Below, in pieces: positions 3,055-62,478 of a stretch of DNA of 64,000 bases. Within the stretch, counting starts at the first letter, position 1; every line of letters starts with the position of its first letter. Where the stretch lies: assembly GCA_965112155.1 (NCBI GenBank), contig OZ218100.1, one strand, 5' to 3'. The stretch is from Podarcis liolepis (Eukaryota). The notes beneath the pieces were generated by a model that did no database searches, had not been told where the DNA came from, and saw only the letters and a program-made list of their open reading frames with translations. Both the position numbers and the translations under genes were made by a program.

Positions 3055-3871
3055 ATGCCAGGGATGGTCAGTAAAAACCCAGATCTTGAATTCGACTCCT
3101 TGCAGCCTTGCTTCTACCCGGACGAAGATGATTTTTATTTGTGCGGTCCTGACTCTGCTCCCCCGGGGGAGGACATCTGGAAAAAGTTCGAGCTACTGCC
3201 TACACCTCCCTTGTCTCCCAGCCCGGCAGGTCTGCAAGAAAACCCCCCCGGGGGAGCCCCCGTTTCGAGTTGGGGCGGGGCGGGGACTCTAGGGGGGTTC
3301 CGAACCGCCGACCCTCTGGACTGGGCTTCGGAATTGCTGCTCTTGCCCCCGGAAGCGGACCTGTGGGGCGGCGGCGATGGAGGGGACTCCTTCGAGACCG
3401 GCTTGGGGGAGAACAGCAACCTGAACGCCATCATCATCCAGGACTGCATGTGGAGCGGCTTTTCCGCCAGCGAGAAGCTGGAGAGGGCAGCGGCTAACGA
3501 GAAGCCGCAGAGCAAAGGAGGAACAGCTGTCGCGCCGGCCACAGCTGGGTCTACAGCCGCCGCTGCTGCCGCCGCCGCCACCACCACCGCCAGCAGCTCT
3601 GCGAACAATGGCAGCAGCAGCAGCAGCCAGGCGCAGCTGAACAACTCTGTATCGGAGTGCGTGGATCCAGCCGTGGTTTTCCCCTTCCCTATGAACAAGA
3701 GGGAGCCGGCTGCTCCTGCTGCAGCGGCTGGGATCCGGGGGAACCTTGGCGGCGGCAGCGAGGCGGTTCCAGGGGTGGCGGCTCCTGCTCAGCACAGCGG
3801 CTGCCACCCAAGCGCAGCCAGTGACAGCCGGACCGGCAGCAGCTCTGGCGATGACACGCTCAGCGATTCCG
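3055..3871 (+). CDS. MYCN: N-Myc proto-oncogene protein, coding exon 2 (transactivation domain: MB0, MBI, MBII, MBIIIa)
   Basis: [28 protein letters not shown]; [20 protein letters not shown]; [14 protein letters not shown]; MBIIIa [12 protein letters not shown]; ends DDTLSDS with phase-1 donor G|GTAAAT at 3872. Likely exon acceptor after polypyrimidine tract TGCTTAG|2948. Confidence 0.97.
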
Positions 3872-4014
3872 GTAAATAGCCACATGCTTTCCCGCTCCAT
3901 TGGGAGGGGGTGTGTGTTTCGACTTGCAACGCTCTTCCCCCTGCCCCTCACAGCAAGCCAGCACAGTAGCACAGCTGCCTTGCTTCAGTTGTGCCACCAG
4001 CCAGAGTGGCGACA

Positions 4015-4147
4015 GCTATGCCTGGATAGCTCAGTTGGTTAGAGCAGGGTGCTGATAACTCCCGGGGTTGCAGGTTCGATCCCCGTATAGGACAGCTGCA
4101 TTGCAGGGGGTTGGACTTAAAGGTCCTCAGGATTATGATTCTGTGAA
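4015..4147 (+). mobile_element. tRNA-derived SINE with CR1-like 3' tail (Squam2-like) in MYCN intron 2
   Basis: A box TAGCTCAGTTGG, B box GGTTCGATCCC, then GCATTGCAGGGGGTTGGAC...ATGATTCTGTGA; related copies at 4450-4572(-), 36098-36240(+), 43876-44003(-), 54825-54978(+), 56228-56328(-). Confidence 0.7.
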
Positions 4148-4449
4148 TCGATAGGAAGCTGGGTGGGTGATCACCAGTGGTTGGGTGGCTGATCACCAAC
4201 GCTGTTGAATGATCCCAGCTCCATTAGGCTGGTGCATTTGGACAGAGCTGCCTCTTTACCTAGAGAACAAGGAAATGATATCTTCCGGTTGTTTTGTTTT
4301 GTCTCCCAGGCTGTAACCTTTTCCTTCCTGCATCCAAATCATAGCTAAGGCTTACTCCTCCCCCCCCCCTTTACACACCAAACCAAAGTATGCAGATCTG
4401 TATATCTCAGGTCATGTCTCAGTAATAGTAAGACTGAGTGGAAGTTACT

Positions 4450-4572
4450 CACAGAATTCTAGAGCTGGAAGGAACCTTGTGGTTCTTCCCTGCAATGCAG
4501 GAATATGCAGCAGGATTGAACCTGCAACCTTGGCGATTTATCAGTACAGCACTCTTAACCAATTGAGCTATG
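4450..4572 (-). mobile_element. tRNA-derived SINE (same family as 4015)
   Basis: Reverse-complement A/B boxes (AACCAATTGAGCTA, GGATTGAACC) and CR1-like tail. Confidence 0.6.
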
Positions 4573-6151
4573 CCCAAGGTGGCTTGATCTCGAGGTGAAC
4601 CTTCTGCTACAAAGCAATAAGGTGGAAAGAGAGGTTTAAAGCAGAGGTGGGAGGGGGAGACACCGGGAACGAGAGAGGCCATTTGACTCCTGTGGAATTG
4701 AGGGAGGGGTAATGAATGCTGCTGATATTTATGCCCAGGAGCTCTGCAAAGACAGGATACATAGGGCTACTGTGTTTGTTTCATAGGGAGAAAATGCTTG
4801 TAGAATGTAGTCTGCTTGCATTATTATTATTATTTTTTAAAAAGATTAATAAATAATAATCTAGACTGGCTTTCCAAACTGGTAGGTGAGTTTAATTGCT
4901 TCCCTGCTAGAAAATTACAAAGCTTGACCAGTAGGTGGCAGGGTACATGCCTCTCTCAGATCATTATTCTTATCAAAAAAGTTTCCCTTGGGGACTCCCG
5001 TTCCAGACAGTTGTATGGGTTCCTCCTACCTTACACACAAACTTTGCAGTGCTGATGATGGATGGATGGAAGAAATTCATTTTAAAAAATAAATCTGCAA
5101 ACCTACAACATATTTATGCTAAACATCACTGCAGTTCTGCAGCTGGTTCCATTTCTGCTGCCATATATACTATATACAAGTTTTGCATGCAACAGCGTAT
5201 TGTGAAAACACAAGAGCGATTTGCTCTTTTGTGCTGGGCATGGATTGTTTATTTTGCACGAGGCATCAAAAATTCATGCTTTCCCTCATCGTCCAGCAAT
5301 TTAGCAGGTGTTTTAGAAGGGCGGTAATAAAAAATGCTGAGCTACAAGTTAAGTGAAACATTTACACTCCTGGTGGGAGAGAGGGATGGTAATAAACACA
5401 GCTTCCCATATGTAAATGAGAGTATCCCTATGACCAGAATCATAAAGTTGACGAACAGCCTCCTGTTTCAAAACACTCGCTGCTCCCTTCATGTCTGCAT
5501 CTTGACAGCTTTGAGTGAAGGAGCATTTCCTCCCAACAGCTGTCTTCCTGGCAGTAAACCAAAACTTTGGCTACCAACTGGAAGAGCTCTGCATTCCCTG
5601 TTAGAACAAATCCAGCTATTGTTTGGTTTCCCAGTCCCTTTTCAGTCAAGCAAGATGTGCGTGTGTGTACATTTAATGTGCATTGTGTGCCTGCTTGTAT
5701 TGTCCGTGCAATTTAGAGCACAGACTGGTAGCTTAAAATGCAAATTAGGGTATTTCGTTTCCAGATTTATTTTCATCCTCCTATGATTATTTGGGTTGCA
5801 AATTTATTTGCTTTCCTGCACAGCTTGAAATCCAGTGCTTTGTGCTATTTCTTGTGGATCTAGAGCTACATCTTGGTTACAAGACCTGCAGAACTATATA
5901 GCATAGCATGTAGCCTCTAAGGCACATGTATACAAAGTCCTTTCTCTTTTACCTTTAAATGCTGTTTCCCTGCTTCCACTGCCTCTTTTGCGTTGCTTAA
6001 ATATTTATACATGGGCATTTGCCTTGGGAATTGCTTTCATTTCGTACACATATATGCTAATTAATGCTAAATGCTTGAGAGCCTTCTGGTGTGCTTTCCT
6101 GAGATGATAACATCTCCCTGTTTCTTCTCTCTCTCCCCGATGTGTTAAAAG

Positions 6152-6750
6152 ATGAAGATGACGAAGAGGAGGAGGACGACGAGGAAATTGACGTGGTCAC
6201 CGTGGAAAAGAGGCGGTCCTCATCCTACAAGGCCGTGACCACCCTCACGGTTGCAACGCGCCCCAGAAGCGCCACCTCCTTTGCCTCCGTGAGAACTCAG
6301 CCAAACGAAGTCCTTCTAAAGCGCTGTGCCCCTATTCACCAGCAGCATAACTACGCCGCGCCTTCGCCTTACATCGAAAGCGAGGAGGTGCCGCCCCAGA
6401 AAAAGCTAAAAACTGAAGCGCCCCGTCCCGTCAAAGCCATGACCCAACCCAAGGCCAAGAGCTCCAGTCCCCGAAGCTCCGATTCGGAAGACAGCGAGCG
6501 CCGGCGTAACCACAACATCTTGGAGCGCCAGCGGCGCAACGACCTGAGGTCGAGTTTCCTCACGCTTAGGGACCATGTGCCGGAACTGGTGAAAAACGAG
6601 AAGGCGGCAAAAGTCGTCATCTTGAAAAAAGCCACCGAGTACGTTCATTCGCTACACGCCGAGGAGCACAAGTTGTTGCTAGAAAAGGAAAAACTGCAAG
6701 TCAGACAACAGCAGCTGATAAAAAAATTGGAGCACATGCAGACTTGCTAA
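6152..6750 (+). CDS. MYCN: N-Myc proto-oncogene protein, coding exon 3 (acidic region, MBIIIb, MBIV, NLS, bHLH-LZ)
   Basis: Phase-1 acceptor AAAG|AT gives GAT with exon 2; [77 protein letters not shown], leucine zipper, TAA ending 6750. 817+599=1416 nt = 471 aa + stop. Confidence 0.97.
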
Positions 6751-11888: not shown

Positions 11889-13150
11889 TCATACCCTCCA
11901 ACATCTCTCCAATGAAAATATAGACATCCAAGTCATTATTATTATTATTATTATTCCCCGCCCATCTAACCAGGTTGCCCCAGACATCCTGGGTGGCTTC
12001 CAATATGTATAAAAACATAATAAAACATTAAACATTTAAAAACTTCCCTAGACAGGGCTGCCTTCAGCTATCTTCTAAAGCAGTGTTTCCCAACCTTTTT
12101 TGGGCAAAGGCACACTTGTTTCATGAAAAAAATCTCGAGGCACACCACCATGCCAGATGGGGAAAGGTCACTTTTTACTTATGTAAAAAAAAAAAAAAAA
12201 AAATAGTAACAGCATAGAAGGTAATGGTTAGGCTAGCATCCCTCTTCCAAATATGCTAGGTTTTTATTTGCAGGGACTGTTCTACATGGGAAAGCATTCA
12301 GCACTGTCATTCTCCCATCTGCCGTCTGAATTGGTACTATTCTGGGTCAACTTACTCTGCTGCATGTGTAGATGAAAATGGCACCAAGTGTGGGGGAGGG
12401 GGCAGAACAGGTTTCAGATACAGGATATTAAGCATACACGTACTTCAGATTGAACTGGTTGCTTTGCAAGTTTTCATTTCCCAAATGACTGCCTTGGCAA
12501 GAGCAATACCTACCAGGCTCAACGCCGGTCTCGCGCTGCCGCTTCCCGCGCTCTCAAGGACCCGGGAGGAGGAAGGCGTGAAGGGAATCCCGAAGGCGCG
12601 AAAACCTCGCGCATGCGCAGGCCTTCCGCCTGCGACAGCCCAGTAGGCCGGCCGAAGCGAGCGGCGATGGGATGTGGGAGGGAGCTCGCTCGCCGCCCCG
12701 CGTGTGCCTATGTGGGGCACGTTACAGCCCCGTGACGTCAGCGCCACGCAGGCAGCCAGGCAGGCAGACGGCGAGAGCCCCGCGCTGGGCGGCCTCTCCT
12801 CGCCGCCGCCGCCCCGCCTCTCGCCGCCCGACTCGCCCGCCTCCCTCCCACGGCACACCAGGAAACGTCTCGCGGCACACTAGTGTGCCGCGGAACACCG
12901 GTTGGGAAACACTGTTCTAAAGGTTATCTACTTATCTCCTTGGCCCGGTGTGTGTGTGTCGCATAACTCCATAACCTCCAACATTTCTCATTTGAAAATA
13001 GGGACGTCCTACCATGCCCTCCAATATTTCTCTGGTGAAAATAGGGACGTTCTAAGGAAAAGTGGGACATTCTGGGATCAAATCAGAAATGGGAACGGCC
13101 TCTGTAAATCTGGGACTGTCCCTGGAAAGTAGAGACACTTGGAAGGTCTG
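11889..13150. mobile_element. Composite MITE (CATACCCTCCAAC ... TTGGAAGGTCTG) carrying an L2 3' tail fragment, itself host to the hAT at 12081
   Basis: Same CATACCCTCCAACATTTCTCC.ATGAAAATAGGGAC motif plus inverted L2 tail also at ~10408-10760; partial copies at 16480-16566, 16770-17200, 28442-28482. Confidence 0.6.
12081..12914. mobile_element. Non-autonomous hAT transposon, copy 1 (with CpG-rich cargo)
   Basis: TIR CAGTGTTTCCCAACC / GGTTGGGAAACACTG; perfect 8-bp TSD TTCTAAAG (12073-12080, 12915-12922). Confidence 0.92.
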
Positions 13151-14502: not shown

Positions 14503-16167
14503 TATAGTAAAACACACGACCACCTTAAATATAGAATGGTGTGGAAGCAGGGGCATTGTGTACCCAAAGTTGCCAAAAAACTTTTAAATAACTTTAACAA
14601 AATATTCCTTTCCCCCACACCCCGCCAAAAATGTATATAAGTTTGGTTTCCTCTAGTGCATCCAAATCTCTGGATTCATCCCAGCCCATGTTTTACAGGT
14701 TGCGGTTGGACCTCACCAGGCAAATCATGAAGCATTTAGCTAGGCCTAATTCTGTCCTTTCCTTTTGTAGCAGCTGTTTAAAATGGGAGGGGGCTCATTT
14801 GTAGTTTGCATTTACTGCCTTTTCCTGCAGCTTCCTGCCTCTGCATCGCATCATATACCAGGGGAGTAAGATGTGTCTGTAAACATCCTGTAATATTTTC
14901 CAGTATTAAAATAATGTTGATATGCTATGTTACATTTTTCTTTCTGGAATAAGCAACATATTCAAAGCGAGAAGGTACAAAGCTGGGAGCTGGGAAGTGA
15001 ATGCAAAGGTGCTCAGGGGTAGTTTCCAGCTCACTTCTTGTGCCTAACCCTGTAAGGCTACAATCCTAGGCGGACTGGACTTGGGACAAACCCAAAGAGG
15101 CTTACTCCCAAACTAAGGCACTAACAGCCTACTGAAATTTCACTTCATTCATCTGACCCATGTGGTCTTGAGTCCGCTAAAACCTATGCTGCAATAAATG
15201 TGTTGGCCTTTAAGCATCCACAAAATTCTCTGTTGTTTTCAGTAACAGTCTGTATGTGTTGATCCTCAAAAGAATGTTATTTTCTGTTCATGTGATATCA
15301 GGGCATGGGCTGAGGGGGATTCAGAGGCCGTATCAAGCGTAGAAAGGAATATTTTTGTGGCTGCTAAAGATAGGTCACTCTGTGGAGATAAAGTAAGAAT
15401 GTGGAGAACTATTACTTCAAAGGCTATCTTAATACTACTACATTTCCTATTAGTACTCTTAAAGTTTACATATGGAAATATTTGAATGGGCAATATTGAA
15501 AGAAAACAATATTGATATTCAACATGGTTGGAAAACCAGAAATATCTTAGGCTATGTATATCACGCATTTCAAACACATTTCAAGCACATGACTTCCCCC
15601 AGATAATCCTAGGAAGTGTAGTTTGTCAGGGTGCTGGGAATTGTAGCTCTGTGATGGTTAAATGACAGTTTCCAGTATTCTTTGGGAAAAGCCAGATATT
15701 TTAAATGTGCTTCAAATGCATGGCGTGCACACAGCTGCAATGTCTAATTATATCAAAGGGTGTCCTAAATGTGATGCAATAAATGATTCCTTTATTTCAT
15801 TCTGGCTATTTGTAGCTGAAAGTTTTGTAGGATAGAAAAAACAGCACGTGCGCACACACGTAATAACAGAAAATCGATAGGGTTTGTAATTTAATGTTTG
15901 GTCGGAAGTATAGATGAGAATATCAAGTAACCAAGAGCAGTGAGCTATGACGAGATTTCCTTTACAAAGTAAGACCTCCAATTGTCTGCATCTCAGACCT
16001 CCTATTTCCTCAGAGTAACCCAAAGATATGGTATACGGCATTATGCTTTCTTTCAGGGTTTCTACAATTTGAGGGGGGCGGGCAGGGAGGATGCTCTCCT
16101 TACAATAATAGGGAAATTGAGACCTCTAACAAGTTTGCAGAAAAATGCTTGCAGGAGAAGTTGTATA

Positions 16168-16420
16168 CAGTGGTGCCCCGCAAGACGAATGCCTCGCAAG
16201 ACGAAAAACTCGCTAGACGAAAGGGTTTTTCGCTTTTGCGTTGCTTCGCTAGACGAATTTCCCTATGGGCTTGCTTCACAAGACGTAAATGTCTTGCGCT
16301 TTTTTCTTAAAGCCGCTTGAAGAGGCGCAGTTGCGACGGACCGTGCTTCGCAAGACGAAAAACATCGCAAGACGAAAAGACTCGCGGGACGAATTATTTT
16401 CGTCTTGCGAGGCACCACTG
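16168..16420. mobile_element. Tc1/mariner-superfamily (Tigger-like) MITE, CAGTGGTGCC family
   Basis: TIR CAGTGGTGCCCCGCAAGACGAA / TTCGTCTTGCGAGGCACCACTG, TA TSD; second copy at 62030-62478. Confidence 0.85.
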
Positions 16421-16801
16421 TACTTTTAATGATGATTTCACTTAATCATTTGTGACCAATGTTTTCACAAACGCTTTATAGAACATTCTGGGATCTAATC
16501 AGAAACTGGGACGGCTTCTGTAAATCTGGGACTGTCTCTGGAAAACAGGGGCACTTGGAGGGTCTGGCATTTTAAAAATCACTGGAGAGGAAGATGTTAT
16601 TCATTCCTGTAGGCTAGCTAGAGGCCTTCACTGTAGAGCAGTCTATACATTGTATGTGTGTATATGGGAATAAATAAATACTGGTATCTACTAGAATGGT
16701 TGCAGGTTTCTGACTTTTTTGTAGTGAGAAGAAAGAGTCCTCTAGATCTGGCTCAGGGACTGCATCACTCCATTGCCTCCATCATTTCTCCGATGAAAAT
16801 A

Positions 16802-20576: not shown

Positions 20577-22272
20577 GGTTGTCAAGGAGAAAGAGTGCCT
20601 GCTCATCTTCTAGTCTCCAGCCCTCAAAATTGCAAATCAGTTAGGATAATGCAAAGAGCACTTCTTCTTCTCATCTTGCTAGATCTCGGGCTGACTCAAC
20701 TTTCTAAAATGGCACACATTCCCCCAAAGAACCTACAGTATGTAATCCTTCGGGCAAATGTCCAATAATACCTTTAGAAGCAATAGTATTAAAGAGATGC
20801 TTCTTGCAGAATTGGCAAAAGAAACTGCAGCACCTCGAATGAAGACAAGTGCTTGCAATATGCAGGAGGGCCAAGAAAAGTCTGCTCTAAAGAGATCAGA
20901 ACCAAAGCTGGAAACATCCTAGGAGGCTTCTAGGCGTGAGAGCCGTCCGATTGCTGCTTCTGAAGAAACCAGTGAACCTGGATCTCGGGGTACCTCAACT
21001 TCTAGAATTGCAGACACTCCCCAAAAGAAACTACGCATTCATTTAGCCAAAGGTCCAATACCAATAGCTGCCATCAGTGCTAAAGAGAGGTTTCGTGCAG
21101 AATTGCAAGAAGAAACAGCAGCACCCCAAATCAAGACAATTGCTGCAATATATAGGAGAATCAGGAAGAATCTGCTCCAAAGAGATCAGAACCAAAGTGT
21201 ACTGAACTGGCAGGGCAATGGAGAAGAGGAAGAGGGTGCCAGCGAGGGCTGTAGCCGGGAGTGGGATGCACCTGGGCAAGCCGGGGATGGGAAAGCGAGG
21301 CTGGTGCAGGAAGTACTCTTGGGTTGATGGAGGATGATGAGGGGATGGGGGTTAGTGCACAGGAACCAGAGCAGCAGGACCCATTGCCCGAGCCAGAGGG
21401 GGCCCTCCCGCCACAAACACAGCGGGCTCTGAGCCATAGGGAGCAATGGGTGGGGCACTCCAGGAGGCTGGGGCAAGCCACTCATGGTGAGTCCACCTCA
21501 CTAGTTGGCCAGGTGGGGCTCATTAGCTGTTGGGAGGAGGGGTGTGAATACTCAGCTGGATTAGGCTTGGAACAGGTGAGGGTCACATGCCTCATCAAGC
21601 CCAGGGGCTGCCATCAGCAGACAAACTATAAAAGGGAAGCAGAGCTGTGTCTGCTCAACTGCCCATGTTGATGGACCTCAGTTTGGATGCTCTAGGATCT
21701 CCGTGGGACTGTGCTTCCTTTGGAGTTTGGGCACATGGATTAACCCAAGGACAAGGGACTTGACATAGTGACTTAGGTATGCCAGGGGTTCAGGACACAA
21801 AACATCTCTTGGAGGTTTCTAGGCATGGGAGCTGTCGGATTGCTGCTTCTGAAGAAACAACTGAACCTGGGTTGTCAATGAGAAAGAGTACTCAGTCATC
21901 TTCTAGTCTCCAGCCTCCAAAATCGCAAATGGATCAGGATAATGCAAAGGACGCCTCTTCTTCTTGTCTTACTAGATCTCGGGCTGCCTCAACTTCTAAA
22001 ATTGTTCTCCCAAACAACCTATGTAGTCCTTTAGCCAAAGCTCCAATAGTACCTTTAGAATCAACAGTAGCAGTCTGTACTCATGAGGAGCTTCACGCAG
22101 AACTGCAAAAGGAAGCAGCGGCACCCCAAATGAAGACAAGTGCTTACAATATGCAGGAGGGTCAGGAAGAGTCCATTATAAAGAGATCAGAACCAAAGGT
22201 GGAAGCGATCTAGGAGGTTTCTAGGCATGAGAGATGTCAGATTGTTGTTTCTGAAGAAACTGCTGAACTTGG
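20577..22272 (+). pseudogene. Decayed tandem array of three ~400-bp coding-like units (Ser/Glu/Lys-rich), origin unknown
   Basis: Anchor AGAGATCAGAACCAAAG at 20891, 21181, 22182; translations AELAKETAAPRMKTSACNMQEGQEKSALKRSEPK / AELQEETAAPQIKT / AELQKEAAAPQMKTSAYNMQEGQEESIIKRSEPK; in-frame stops and frameshifts present. Confidence 0.6.
21198..21797 (+). mobile_element. Solo LTR (600 bp, probably Gypsy/ERV type)
   Basis: TG...CA ends with inverted termini TGTACTGAAC / GTTCAGGACA, near-TSD CAAAG/CAAAA, TATAAAAG at 21627-21634; cleanly interrupts repeat unit 2. Confidence 0.75.
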
Positions 22273-24265: not shown

Positions 24266-26640
24266 TTTTAAAAACTGCAACATTGATTATTTCAGATGAT
24301 GTATGGATTGACTGATTTTTATTTCAACGGAGCTGCTGGAGAAATAGCCCGCTAGATATTTGCTAGAGAAGCAGCCTTCCTGCAAGTTGTCCCCCTCCAA
24401 CCATCTCGTAGCCACGGACACCCGCCTTTTCTTTCGCCCTCGCCGGCGTCCCCAATAGAATGAGAATGCGACATTCGCGGGAGCCTTTGTACTAGAAAAG
24501 GAAATGGCAGCAGACCCCCTTGACAATGAGCTCCAGTTCCAACCGAGCACAGCCTGCCCCGTAAAACCCCCACACAGAAGCTCCTCCAGTTCCCCGCGTT
24601 ACTCATTATGCATCCCCGGTGATCGTGCCGCCGATGCGGAAGGGGCAACTGTGAAGGCTCACATTGATTCCCCTTTTCATAGGAGAGGAGATTGTTGGCG
24701 GAAGATCACTGCTAGCAGTCCCCCGCGACAGATTTTTTTCCAGCGCGTTGCAGGCAGGTTGGCCGGCTGCCTGACAATCGGCTGTTGAGTGACATATTTT
24801 GGGCAGAGCCGTGGCAAAATGGGAGCCATGTGGCTGATGTTAGTAAACATTATCCCGCACAGACTGGCAGGACACCGTCAGCAGCGGGAGGGTGAATGGC
24901 TGGCAGGCTGCGTGAACTGGACACACAGGCAGCTAAGCACTACCTAGGAGACGCAAGCCAAGGCCTACAATCCAGCAGCTGCTGCGGTTGCCAGGGCAAC
25001 TAGAGACGAGGGAACAATGAGCTGGAAATCCAGCATGCAAGCTTTTATTGAAAGGTTTCCCCCGCTACCCAGCCCAAGCAAGGTCACACTCCCCAACCCC
25101 CCCCCCCATGTTAAAAAAATGTTTTCGGGTGGCGGCAGCTCGCTGTTGTTGTTTTGGTTATTGTTGCTGCATGGATCAATAGAGATATAGATATAAAGCA
25201 CAAGAAGCAATAGTGTACAGAGCCATTTCCTTTCCAAAGAACGGTGTGCGCAATTGGCGACGTGCTTTTGCTCCGTGTGTGGACTATACAAATGATAGGC
25301 GCACATACAGATCTCCTGCCTTTATATCCATTCCATCATAGTAGGGTGAAGAAAACATGCACGGCGAAAAATAAGAATGAAATTCATCTGAGAGGATACG
25401 TTTTCAAGCAGGAAAACAAAACGATTCTCTCCCCTCAACCCCCCCCCCCCGGGGGGGAAATTACCCCTCGCTTCTCCTTCACACCACAAGTACTAGGCAT
25501 ACAAATCAACCTAACCATGCAAAATATAGTCTTATTACTTAAAAAATGTAGTCTGTAACAGAAAACGCACAGGGTTTTTCAAAATTCATGTTTCGCTCTA
25601 GTTATTTTCCCTGCATTTTTCAGTGTATTAGCGCCTTGTTTCCAAATTAAGATCAGTTTGGCTGCTCTTTTAATTACTGTAGTAAAATCATTTCACAGGG
25701 GACCAGGTATTCTGCCATTTCACTTACAAACCCAGCTAATAACCTCCCTCCAGATTTTTTGGGTTACAGTGGGCCCTAGCCAGGGTTGGAAGAAAGCTAA
25801 CGTTTGTTTGCCTGAACCATTAACCAACCGTGCCAAAAATGAACAGGTAGTTTTTGTTACTACCTGCCTCCCTACATATCGCTGTTATTTGTGGGATAAA
25901 AAGAATAGGGGAGGGGGAACCCTTTTCTAAATCTTTCCTACTTTGTCACAGACAGACAACCAGGCTAGTGGCTATTTACAACCCTGAATTGAAGGCTTTA
26001 TGTGCTGGGCCCAGTTCGTACGGTTGGTGACGAAGAAACATGGAGCATGTGGCCGTGCGTGGACATTTGCACCCTATATTCTTGCAATTAATCTGCCTCA
26101 AGGAAGCGGGGCAAAGATAATAACTAGTAGGTTATTATACTCAACACACACAGTACTGCGAGAATAAATATTTTGGAGTTTTTGACTATGAAAAGCCTAG
26201 CATTATGAATTTAAAGTGCCATTGTTGAAAAAAATGTAGTGGAGCTGACATTTAACATGTTAAACTAAACAGCAATGGGTTAATTGTATTCATAGAAAGA
26301 AGTCATCACGGAACAAGGGCTTTTATGGGGCAGGAGGGAGATAACCTTGAAGCAGAAGCATTTTTACAAAATGCGTATTCTCCCAAGAATGGCTTAGAAT
26401 GCTCATTGAAAAACAAAACGCATTAGAAAGGTATATATAATGCATTGCGTTTTGAGTAAGGTAGAGGTAATACATATTTTCACTCAAGACTGCAATTCAA
26501 GGTAGCCACACCAGAGTCTTTTTGAATCGGTGGTCTGGTCACTCAGAGAATTGCAATTGCAATGCAATGCAGGAATATGCAACTCTCCCATATGGGGACT
26601 GAACTTGCAATCTTCGCATTCTCAGCACTATGCTCTAACC

Positions 26641-27565
26641 CAGTGTTTCCCAACCTTTTTTGGGCAAAGGCACACTTGTTTGATGAAAAAAATCTCGCGG
26701 CACACCACCATTACAGCCCCATGACGTCAGCGCGCAGCGTCACGCCGGGAGGGACGCACGAAAGTGAAAGTTTTCAATTTTTTCCCCTCCCCCTTGCCGG
26801 GGAACCTCCAAGCTTTGGGGGTGGGGGGGGGAGGAGGCAGCAAAGCGAGGGACTGAGGGACCCTAACCCTAACCCTAACCCTCACCGATCACCCGGGAAA
26901 GCATGCGAACGAGGAGCCCCCGTGTCCTGCTCCCGGCAGCGGACGGCACAAAGCGAGGAGGCCTGGACAAGGCAGCACGCTCCCCGCTCTCGCTTTATCG
27001 GGGATTTTCTCCTCCAGGCCGCTTTCGAAGTCCCCTTCTCCGCTCCCAAGAGCCGGAGCCGCTGCTTCCAGGCCCTGTCCGAGCCCCGACTTGTGGCCTC
27101 ACTTCGAGGAGCGCCTGTTGCTGGGGACGGGGCTGCATCCCCCTCAGCCGCCGCCTCGCTTCCTTCCAGGAGACCCGACGGCTCCCCCTCTCCCGCTCGC
27201 CCTCCTGCGCCCGCAGCAGACCGAGACCTCCCCACCCCCGCCCGGCTCGGCCCTACCTGGGCGCCTCCAAGCCCGGCCGGCTCCGCGTCGCGCTCCACGC
27301 CGGGCAGCTACAGCGGGGGCACGCGGCAGCCCGGCTGAGCGCGCCCCGGAGCCGCCGCGCCGTCGCTCGCGAGTCCCTCCGAGAGCCCTCGGGACTGACT
27401 CCGGAGTCGCGAGGCGGCGCGTCGCCCAGGGAAGGGGCGGCTTCCCACAAGTCCTCCGGGAAGCAAACGCCCTCGCCCGCCTCCCTCCAGGCAACATCTC
27501 GCGGCACACCAGGCAACATCTCACGGCACACTAGTGTGCCGCGGAACACCGGTTGGGAAACACTG
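26641..27565. mobile_element. Non-autonomous hAT transposon, copy 2 (with a different CpG-rich cargo), inserted in a tRNA-SINE
   Basis: Same TIRs as 12081; perfect 8-bp TSD CTCTAACC (26633-26640, 27566-27573); flanks rejoin as a minus-strand SINE (GCTCTAACCAACTGAGCTA). Confidence 0.92.
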
Positions 27566-29749
27566 CTCTAACCAACTGAGCTACCCAGGCTGACGCACAA
27601 TTGCAATATACAAAGTTAAGCCCGGCTAAGGCCTTCGTTTCTGTGGGTTTAAGCATGGACTGTGACCTCTGGAAGGTTTCTATGCATTGTGACTTATCTG
27701 CAGCTTATGGGGCAGCTTTCCTTCAGCTCTAGGGTCACACCCCTTTGGGACAGAAAAAAATGGCCTAAAATATGGACCCCATTGAAATGCAATGATTCCG
27801 CAATAGCACAGTATGGATTCTCTGTAAAGGCTGGGTAGGCAAGCTAGGCAGATTCTGGAGAGGAGGACTAGCATGGAAGTAAACGTTGCATTCAGAGGCC
27901 TGCGTCTCTTGAAGATGAGAATCTGGGATTCAGACTAGGGTTTGCAGAGGAAGAGTCTTATTTTATACTTCCTACCTTCTATACTGGCAGACTGCTGTTC
28001 TTTCCAGAATGTTTATTGTCCTGTCAGCTTAGCATAAGTCCTGGTGTGGATTTCCTGGTGTGAGGAAACCCTGGCCTGGATAAAGGAATGGTTCTGGCAC
28101 AAGCATGACAGTAAACCTAGCTTTTCCTAAGAGTTAAAAAGTAATTCCAGGGCTGTGTTTGAGTATAGGAAGATTGTCGGCTCAAAAACGTTAGCTCAGC
28201 AATGTCAAAGAGTGTAGGTAAACTGCTGCCTTTTCCACAGGGATTTTACACGAGGAAAAAGCCAGTCTGTACTCCGATGGCAGAAAGGAAACCCATCAGA
28301 GTTGTTCAATTCTTCCCCCATTAGGTCCCAAGGTGAGTGTGTAATGTTTTGCATGAGATACAGGTAATAGAGATGTCAGTGGTGAGAGATGTCTCTTATC
28401 ACATCAGGCCCTTAGCTAATGGTGAAGTACCACTGTGATATCATACCCTCCAACATTTCTCCAATGAAAATAGGGACATCCTATTTTTACTTTTTGAAAT
28501 ATTGTAACTAGACTCTATATGGAATTTAAGTCCCACCCCCTGATTACAACGTCGGGTTACCTTTGGGGGGATGCAAAGTTGTTGAGCTTTTTGGGCAAAA
28601 TCACTTTTTTAAAAGGCCATTTTAAAGCTCTTTTTAATGGAAAAGCGGCAAAAATGGCACTGCTGACATGGGTTGCAATAAGTCCGGATTTTCCCAGACA
28701 TTTCCCCCCGATTTCCATCCAGACACTGCTGCCGGCTGTGGAATATTGGATATGTCAGGAAGATATGTATGCAACCCTACTCAAACCTTACTCCCCACAC
28801 ACTGCAAACTTTGCCAAATCATTCCCTTCGTAGCCTTCTAAAGGAAAATAGCTCAGTAGGCTACAAAAATTACAAAAAGCTAAGCCCCCACCTCTGTAAT
28901 GTGAGCATTGGTAATTGGAAGTAATCTGGCAGGATCTGAAATTCAGTATAGTCTGTTCTGGTACAGACGGGGAGAATCAGAATAGTTATTGGGGTTAGAG
29001 CATGAGTTTATGGAGGAAAATGACATCTCTGAAGTCAACAGCATGTAGAACTCCTTTTTGCTTTTCATGTGAGTATCCGTATGCAGACATTAGAAAGAAT
29101 ATTTCTGCTTTGATTCAGAGCGTTTGCAGTTATAACGATATGAGCCTAAACAGGTGAACTGTGGTTTGTGACAGCTAGATTGTTATGAGAGAAACTTCTG
29201 AGCCAGAATTATGGTCTCTGGTGAATAGCTCGCCGCAGCTCTGTTTGTGTAGACGTCCAAGGGTGAAGAACACTAATACAGTTGTCCGTGCACAACTGTA
29301 ACAAACAATCTGCTTATTGTGTATTTTAGAAAAGCAATTCTTCATGCTGGCTAACAGGTGGCACAAAGTTACTGTAGGCACACTGTTGGAGAAGAACAAA
29401 CCCCATTTAACGGAGATATTTGCATGGAGAGGCCAAAATTCATTTTTTTTTAAATGATATTGTCAATGCAAACTGTCAATCCCTCATGTTACACAGATTC
29501 CTCCTGTTGCATTCAGTCTGCCTCTGGACAAAAAACACTTCTGCATGAATGTAGGGAATAACAACAACAACTACTACTACAACAATAACAATAATAATAC
29601 AAAGAAGAATGATGACCTCACTCTGGTCTTTTGAATTATGGTTTTCAAGTTGTATTATCAATGCAACACGCGATGCCAAGTTTGTTTTTTGGATGGGGTT
29701 TAAAGTGCGCTATAATTTTTCATACATTTCAGCTTCTCAAGAGGTTATC

Positions 29750-62029: not shown

Positions 62030-62478
62030 CAGTGGTGCCTTGCAAGACGAAAAGAATCCGTTCCGCGAGTCTCTTCGTCTTGCGGTTTTTTCGCCTTGCG
62101 AAGCCAGCCCATTAGCGGCTTAGCGGCTTAGTGCTATTAGCGGATTAGCGCTATTAGCGGATCAGCTGATAAGCAGTTTAGCGGCTTAGCGGATCAGCTG
62201 ATTAGCGGCTTAGCGGATCAGCTGTCAAGCGGCTTAGCGGATCAGCTGATAAGCGGCTTAGCGGAGCTTAGCGGCTTAGGATCAGTTGATAAGCGGCTTA
62301 GCAGCTTGGGGAAAGGGGGGGGGGAGAGAAAAAAACCCTGCAGGAACTCGCAAGACATTTTCGTCTTACGAAGCAAGCCCATAGGAAATTCGTTTTGCGA
62401 AGCACCTCCAAAACGGAAAACCCTTTCGTCTAGCGGGTTTTCCGTCTTGCAAGGCATTTGTCCTCCGGGGCACCACTG
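62030..62478. mobile_element. Tigger-like MITE (same family as 16168, opposite orientation) with internal minisatellite
   Basis: TIR CAGTGGTGCC / GGCACCACTG, TA TSD at the Kaiso Tyr codon. Confidence 0.88.

Follow-up and report, generated by a model that had tools for sequence, protein, structure and literature searches.

The stretch of DNA analysed here (the window) comprises 64,000 nt of a Podarcis liolepis contig (OZ218100.1; assembly GCA_965112155.1). Its genic context is provided by MYCN-type coding exons (Myc_N and HLH; 3055–6750, plus strand), which end 19.9 kb upstream of a 925-bp non-autonomous hAT element at 26641–27565. The terminal inverted repeat (TIR) of this element, CAGTGTTTCCCAACC, is exact at both ends, and the target-site duplication (TSD) CTCTAACC, of the form nnnTAnnn, is found in identical copies at 26633–26640 and 27566–27573 (plus strand). 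It thus has the short TIRs (15 bp) beginning with CAG and the perfect 8-bp TSD of a hAT copy, as the first-pass annotation had recognized. With up to two mismatches allowed, the TIR is found five times in the 64 kb, against 0.22 matches expected. The insertion splits a repeat (26560–27600, minus strand), the flanks of which (26560–26640 and 27574–27600) can be rejoined and are covered as repeat; an A-box-like motif is interrupted by the insertion, and from this motif the repeat is probably a tRNA-type SINE. The same motif holds a preferred target word, with at least three insertions there (the 26641–27565 copy, L026 and L115), and two further loci, L193 and L199, have the same TSD as 26633–26640. 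Sequence joins that skip the element fit other SINE copies and are thus no sign of an empty allele at this locus. A second family member, copy 1 (subfamily A, 834 bp, TSD TTCTAAAG), lies at 12081–12914 and is likewise multi-copy, with a TSD in 20/20 loci.

The element, which we assign to subfamily B, is made up of scaffold, a 15-nt hexamer filler, a donor piece and scaffold. Its left terminal segment (26641–26713, minus strand; TIR at 26641–26655), B 1–73, corresponds to the 3′ end of an autonomous element described below, at 96–97 % identity to six copies. It is followed by a shared CRE scaffold (26714–26861, with TGACGTCA at 26722–26729) that the autonomous element lacks, by the telomere-type filler at the scaffold/donor junction (26862–26876, minus strand), which is in register with a single AGGGTT of the donor, and by a captured host CpG-island piece (26877–27468, minus strand), the donor of which is a 760-bp stretch without TIRs at G000:C19:12302928–12303687. 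Within this piece are a CAG|GTAGG splice-donor-like site (27252–27259, minus strand), a second donor-like motif (26880–26887, minus strand) and two pieces of 26 and 32 bp (26921–26946 and 27407–27438) that match neither the donor region nor the autonomous element. The right terminal scaffold (27472–27565, minus strand), with a 22-bp tandem repeat at 27487–27531 and the TIR at 27551–27565, corresponds to the autonomous 5′ end, and the transposase of the autonomous element would read on the minus strand of 26641–27565. A GC content of 0.70 and a CpG o/e of 0.86 over 26750–27470 agree with the GC- and CpG-rich composition described previously for this span, but its first part, 26750–26861, is shared scaffold and not cargo, since a 555-bp scaffold element, D, matches B 1–221 as well as B 832–925. 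The specific cargo begins at the hexamers, (CCCTAA)3CCCTCA, which are located as claimed at 26861–26884. It is also unlike copy 1, as had been noted, with similarity between the two elements only at the ends and in a 23-bp CRE core.

A 23-mer from the B interior (≤ 2 mismatches) gave 85 matches genome-wide and none with the control, and 40/40 scored matches to the interior were full-length at 96–100 % identity. We fetched 75 of these loci (30 + 45), the other ten being known only as full-length matches. All 75 were element copies and 72 were full, with perfect TSDs in 71 and an intact CRE in 68 of the 72; of the remaining three, one has an internal deletion, one lacks the right end and one, L162, is a longer parent truncated on the left. 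Across five subfamilies, TA occupied TSD positions 4–5 in 155 of 158 perfect TSDs. The capture at 26641–27565 is therefore not independent, as the first-pass annotation had supposed, but one of ∼85 copies of a single capture. Between 70 and 77 % of the words of the B cargo were found under six organism labels, and the B-specific deletion joint was present in DNA contigs of 3/3 other sequencing runs (DNA or unlabelled), all under different organism labels. Capture and deletion thus likely preceded the split of these lineages, or the element spread between them. No RNA data set was listed among those with words of the cargo; one raw RNA run and three presumed-RNA contig sets gave thin cover of it, with no splice joint seen, and we base nothing about expression on this cover. 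At L162 (G000:C3:56612 kb), a contig from run X3 covers the flank and continues unlike the element, a hint of an empty site.

The parent copy L162 retains ∼140 bp missing from B, and a parent-specific 188 bp matched only L162 itself and G000:C19:12302930 (2/2 candidates). The latter is a CpG island without TIRs, and it aligns to B 304–766 at 424/482 positions; the alignment continues through the extra piece of L162, and its leftward extension to the hexamers was better than 2000/2000 shuffles. Over the captured span (window 26877–27468) there are 34 substitutions in 517 columns (6.6 %), and B lacks 17 bp of the donor as well as the stretch of which ∼140 bp survives in L162. The 23-mer count had missed the donor because the 23-mer spans the 17-bp indel, and a junction-exclusion pattern at the right end of B gave 0 matches because the anchor differs in the donor. 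As the 30 closest B copies differ by 0.8 % from their majority, compared with 6.6 % to the donor, the history of the subfamily is one older capture followed by a recent burst. The view that the interior is captured host DNA was accordingly upheld; the further proposal, that it is a mosaic of more than one gene 5′ end, was not, as the specific cargo has one contiguous donor with two pieces unmatched. Nevertheless, B and the donor differ by many indels, which together with these two unplaced pieces makes a second template possible.

The C19 island is preceded, at a distance of 1.5 kb, by the poly(A) signal of a gene with several trypsin domains, which we take to be TMPRSS9, and an LRR coding exon of a LINGO-like gene, presumably LINGO3, lies 35.6 kb downstream of the island on the strand of its GT site. 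The island is likely a gene promoter, and the GT site at 27256, which is present in the donor, likely represents the putative end of a non-coding first exon. A second CpG island is located 7 kb before the LRR exon and could be the main promoter, so the promoter role of the donor island is a putative one. Both donor-like motifs reported earlier do exist in the element, but the one at 26885, although kept in 58 of the 75 B loci, is likely not a captured splice site because the donor reads GC there instead of GT. The trypsin-domain and LINGO-like genes are arranged head to tail on one strand (G000:C19:12290000–12341000), with an LTR retrotransposon carrying long ORFs between them; the human order, we assume, differs from this. 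A small mitochondrial import gene, which we had presumed from synteny to lie at the donor island, was not recovered by a motif scan.

The family also has an intact driver. Via a C-terminal remnant of the transposase we reached an autonomous element of 4.2 kb, which has the ends of the family, TSDs and an ORF of 626 aa and was present in 6 of the 15 stretches fetched; five of the six copies are 99.3–99.9 % alike, and one is 98 % alike over most of its length. A PF05699 search (62 matches; 30 loci and 20 fetched stretches) yielded no transposase with these ends. The 626-aa protein shares 98 % identity with an entry from Podarcis muralis, 85 % with Xenopus and ∼80 % with fishes, and the identity of 76–89 % to frog, fish, snake, tunicate and spider entries suggests horizontal spread of the family. 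Its homologues carry PF14291 and ZBED5/SCAND3-like names, while our own Pfam scan gave only a sub-threshold zf-C2H2_12. Judging from the intact ORFs, the transposase is presumably active. The 2-kb 5′ region of the autonomous element (L418:2801–4900, G000:C8:19986800–19988900) is a patchwork with a GC content of 0.70–0.76 and a CpG o/e of 0.85–0.9. Of this, 227 bp derive from the coding region of an intact host CDK5-activator gene (G000:C1:85620.3 kb, 93 %), a piece that has multiplied in non-autonomous copies as well (33 additional PF03261 matches), and 104 bp derive from the CpG-poor donor locus of copy 1. The order along the element is host-derived GC-rich DNA, a GT donor, a GT–AG intron-like stretch and the transposase ATG. 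A second, unrelated young hAT family was also encountered (L086–L092, e.g. G000:C20:14809436), with open frames of 589–658 aa in several copies.

Matches to a 3′ 26-mer put the size of the family under study at at least 4,485 copies, and at least 2,202 copies carry the CRE scaffold. The scaffold itself (26714–26861) is likely an earlier capture, although no source for it was found. Among 20 exact-match places on contig C1, 19 could be delimited, and 18 of these had CpG-island-like interiors of several unrelated types; this sample is non-random and favours young copies, since it took the leading exact matches to a CpG-containing motif on a single contig and passed over, by eye, places already known to be of type C. 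The remaining copy was a 327-bp AT-rich form, which is itself abundant (40/40 scored matches at 98–100 %). Host donors were found for seven of the nine cargos sought, consistent with the earlier suggestion that capture is routine for this family; by profile five are CpG islands, one is GC-rich coding DNA and one is CpG-poor. Divergence from the donor ranges from ∼1.3 to 6.6 % substitutions. For all four of the rarer types searched by DNA (4/4), the search gave copies and one TIR-less locus each. The L239 type has 39 matches besides its donor, from which it differs by 11 mismatches in 551; that donor belongs to a CUB + F5/8C gene, presumably DCBLD-like, and spans its promoter, its signal-peptide exon, which is in phase with a CUB exon, and the start of the intron. 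The L229 type (16 copies) derives from an island ahead of DJ-1 exons. For the L231 type, with five full copies and two partial ones, the donor is an island 2.6 kb before an RTP801 exon, and the 21 copies of the L242 type combine, in inverted arrangement, two pieces that lie 1.2 kb apart in a single locus, for which Pfam gave no gene name. The seventh donor, of the left 340 bp of copy 1 (A 69–407), is CpG-poor (G000:C2:104376.2–104376.6 kb, o/e 0.06), which means that the bias towards promoters and CpG islands is not absolute. For subfamily E no donor was found among 45 pattern matches and 5 extra loci, two 3-mismatch matches being chance, and none was found for subfamily C, where 40/40 scored matches were copies and the interior motif gave 1,074 matches. 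Overall, subfamilies number ∼6, 16, 21, 39, 43 and 85 copies, and one interior motif has 1,074 matches.

At the sister capture junctions there are 0–5 bp of microhomology, and no TIRs are present at the donors; junction microhomology and the two-piece inverted capture are what template switching would be expected to leave. Modules are swapped and inverted between subfamilies. L194, L198 and L211 are composites with inverted and repeated modules that copy 1 has too, suggestive of recurrent template switching at GC-rich subterminal repeats, and the subfamily of L225:155–1181, L230 and L240 has a stray internal left TIR near the right end, as if repair had copied the element's own end. Subfamily C (L052:1455–2875, 1.42 kb) is the largest cargo type seen, with two minus-strand donor-like sites and promoter-like motifs. 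The L239 type (e.g. G000:C1:17996279–17996799), with ∼39 very young copies that carry a promoter, ATG, signal-peptide exon and splice donor, amounts to a ready-made exon-shuffling cassette for secretion signals.

We next consider the state of these copies in the genome. In 7/7 subfamilies, CpG transitions are 6 to 18 times as frequent as non-CpG C/G transitions. Such an excess is a known mark of germline methylation, and the mutation spectrum thus makes it likely that copies of the family are germline-methylated. The apparent escape of the L239 type (ratio 2.1) was rejected, as its site-based ratio is 6.0 and it is merely younger. In the 26641–27565 copy there are 4 CpG transitions in 188 sites, compared with a mean of 4.85 in the 72 B copies, whilst its bulk CpG o/e of 0.88 is the same as that of the donor piece. 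Methylation-type decay is therefore typical in this copy and the high o/e reflects its youth; the CpGs described as undecayed are so in bulk, but not site by site.

Very probably, the element descends from a single capture of the C19 island, on another chromosome-scale contig, likely through template-switching repair, that was multiplied, likely by the autonomous transposase. Directly established are the ends, the TSDs, the copy number, the TIR-less donor, the autonomous partner and the six further donors of sister cargos. A scaffold resembling the 555-bp D element would have been broken or gapped, and repair would then have copied ∼760 bp of the C19 island in place of the old interior, leaving the 15-nt TTAGGG-type filler at the junction through slippage of the donor AGGGTT or addition by telomerase. 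Later deletions would have produced the 925-bp form, which would have spread in the recent burst by cut-and-paste transposition with gap repair. New copies would become methylated in the germline and begin to lose CpGs, most of them probably being inert. The family would have repeated this cycle with a strong lean to promoters and first exons; probable reasons are that open CpG islands readily serve as templates, that such cargo improves transposition, or both. One 555-bp D copy sits 16 kb from the C19 donor, which would fit template switching during repair (FoSTeST), gap filling or chance.

Two other origins of the interior have to be weighed against this. The first-pass annotation had itself named the competing reading that both interiors are different deletion derivatives of one long autonomous element. 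The autonomous 5′ region is indeed as GC- and CpG-rich as given above, copy 1 has short GC pieces in common with it, and the 327-bp form and 1-kb deletion copies are colinear with the autonomous element. The B interior is not colinear: B matches the six autonomous copies only at 1–73 and 860–925, the autonomous element has no match to the C19 donor locus, and the cargo aligns to an island that lacks TIRs. As only the ends are shared, capture stands and we regard derivation of B by deletion as scarcely credible. For copy 1 the same reading holds in part, in that its GC-rich part shares 80–90 % pieces with the autonomous 5′ region, but its left 340 bp come from the CpG-poor host locus. Highly improbable, if slightly less so, is a local capture assembled from several gene 5′ ends that works as an ectopic CpG island and CRE enhancer for MYCN. 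In its favour are the intact CRE, the bulk o/e of 0.88, the distance of 19.9 kb to the MYCN stop and the two short unplaced pieces; the 85 copies with distinct TSDs, their one donor and the CpG transitions of this copy, typical for the family, speak against it. Moreover, the nearness to MYCN fits chance. With one copy per 351 kb, the chance of a neighbouring copy within 13.7 kb is 7.5 %, such that the presence of two cargos within 15 kb does not speak for any local process. This single copy near MYCN is not in itself special but ordinary within its family, and no observation links it to MYCN control. By sequence, 26750–27470 is a CpG island, but the idea that the family seeds functional ectopic islands was not supported, given the family-wide CpG hypermutation, which points to germline methylation.

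Two further readings concern how the capture of the C19 island came about and why it spread. Capture may have been near-random, with elements that bear promoters remaining open in the germline or early embryo for long enough to transpose more; the cargo would then be a selfish adaptation of the element, a reading compatible with the single C19 capture, and one that we consider possible but less likely than not. A CpG-poor capture exists, the autonomous element has host GC-rich DNA ahead of its GT donor, intron and ATG, and bat Helitrons with promoters attain higher copy numbers according to the available text of PMC4224331. Conversely, the copies show methylation-type decay, the AT-rich form is abundant too and our survey covered multi-copy captures. 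For the hexamers, telomerase may have written the filler onto the donor-side break during capture, and we judge this somewhat unlikely. The filler lies exactly at the junction and extends the donor's single AGGGTT in register with those 6 nt. Its TTAGGG units are exact, which together with this placement gives it the properties of a short interstitial telomeric sequence, and insertions made by telomerase are described in this way in the accessible part of PMC2246262. However, the number of units slips from 1 to 8 among copies, which makes slippage no less likely; further small tandem duplications occur in the element, and four other pairs of capture junctions have no such repeats. In one B copy, L166 (G000:C11:389 kb), the run has grown to 8 units. 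Taken jointly, the boldest account, that a horizontally acquired intact hAT became a promoter thief, with its own transposase driven from stolen CpG-island DNA, its non-autonomous copies multiplied by virtue of the host promoters and first exons that they carry, and one or more junctions sealed by telomerase, strikes us as unlikely. If true, wall lizards would segregate for thousands of mobile promoter cassettes, and some of these would escape methylation and rewire neighbouring genes.

The family is a high-copy, promoter-leaning vertebrate Pack-TIR (Pack-hAT) system with an intact driver. Subfamily B has the features of a multi-copy Pack-TIR element, namely a non-TE interior with a parental host locus, and several loci with distinct TSDs; as regards a parental gene part, this is clear for the L239 type (signal-peptide exon) and the CDK5-activator piece, whilst for B the donor locus is a CpG island that includes a GT site. 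Plant Pack-MULEs resemble the lizard family in frequent multi-copy capture and a GC-rich 5′ bias, and differ in belonging to the Mutator superfamily, in their long TIRs and in their occurrence in plants. In the available text of Tan et al. (2021; PMC8277862), four multi-copy Pack-TIR cases are given for 100 animal genomes, with GC-rich cargo. One of these, Pack-hAT-N8_XT (CAPSL 5′ UTR), is similar in its hAT ends around host 5′ sequence, its distinct TSDs, its donor on another chromosome, its GC-rich cargo and the proposed template-switch origin (FoSTeST), but has three copies (PMC8277862), compared with lizard subfamilies of ∼6–85 copies, nested recaptures and an intact driver; the supplements of that paper may list lizard cases. 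The bat Helitrons (HelibatN3/NUBPL), by which the promoters of 15 genes were amplified to 4,690 copies, share the vertebrate host, the 5′-end bias and serial capture, as far as the accessible text of Thomas et al. (2014; PMC4224331) extends, but are rolling-circle elements without TIRs or 8-bp TSDs and with another capture route, in contrast to the cut-and-paste DDE type of the lizard family. Within lizards, Anolis hobo_AC and orphan hAT-N elements also absorb extraneous DNA and recombine, and hAT-HT3_AC, hAT-N3_AC and SPIN_NA1_AC have similar TIRs and TA-centred TSDs; their cargo, however, is mostly fragments of other transposons, and the main text as available contains neither "promoter" nor "CpG" (Novick et al., PMC3014272). 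The TSD rule nnnTAnnn is that of the Buster group in the available part of PMC3517528. This group is further similar in its short TIRs, ZBED5/SCAND3-like transposase and patchy distribution across phyla. We therefore class the family as a putative Buster-type hAT by the TSD rule and ZBED5/SCAND3-like similarity. The available text of PMC11008031 gives no TIR sequence for comparison. A search of the literature, with Repbase and Dfam outside its scope, found no published account of this hAT family or of hAT promoter capture in wall lizards.

Capture of gene fragments by cut-and-paste transposons in animals was previously thought to be rare and mostly single-copy (four multi-copy cases in 100 genomes, PMC8277862). 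Here, a minimum of seven host loci have supplied DNA, and its amplification is on a scale seldom reported for such transposons in animals. The lizard family thus offers capture at the scale of Pack-MULEs or bat Helitrons, with traceable donors of differing age and an intact transposase gene, and DNA capture by TIR elements and their promoter preference become testable in a vertebrate, through genomes of close species and in cell culture. Additionally, thousands of copies borne by transposons are mixed into the annotation of CpG islands and promoters in these genomes. Elsewhere in the window, we observed a ∼1.3-kb degenerate direct repeat with a purine-rich strand bias (20577–22272) and an 8/24-bp CpG-containing minisatellite (62111–62302) within an inverted-repeat element related to 16162–16425.
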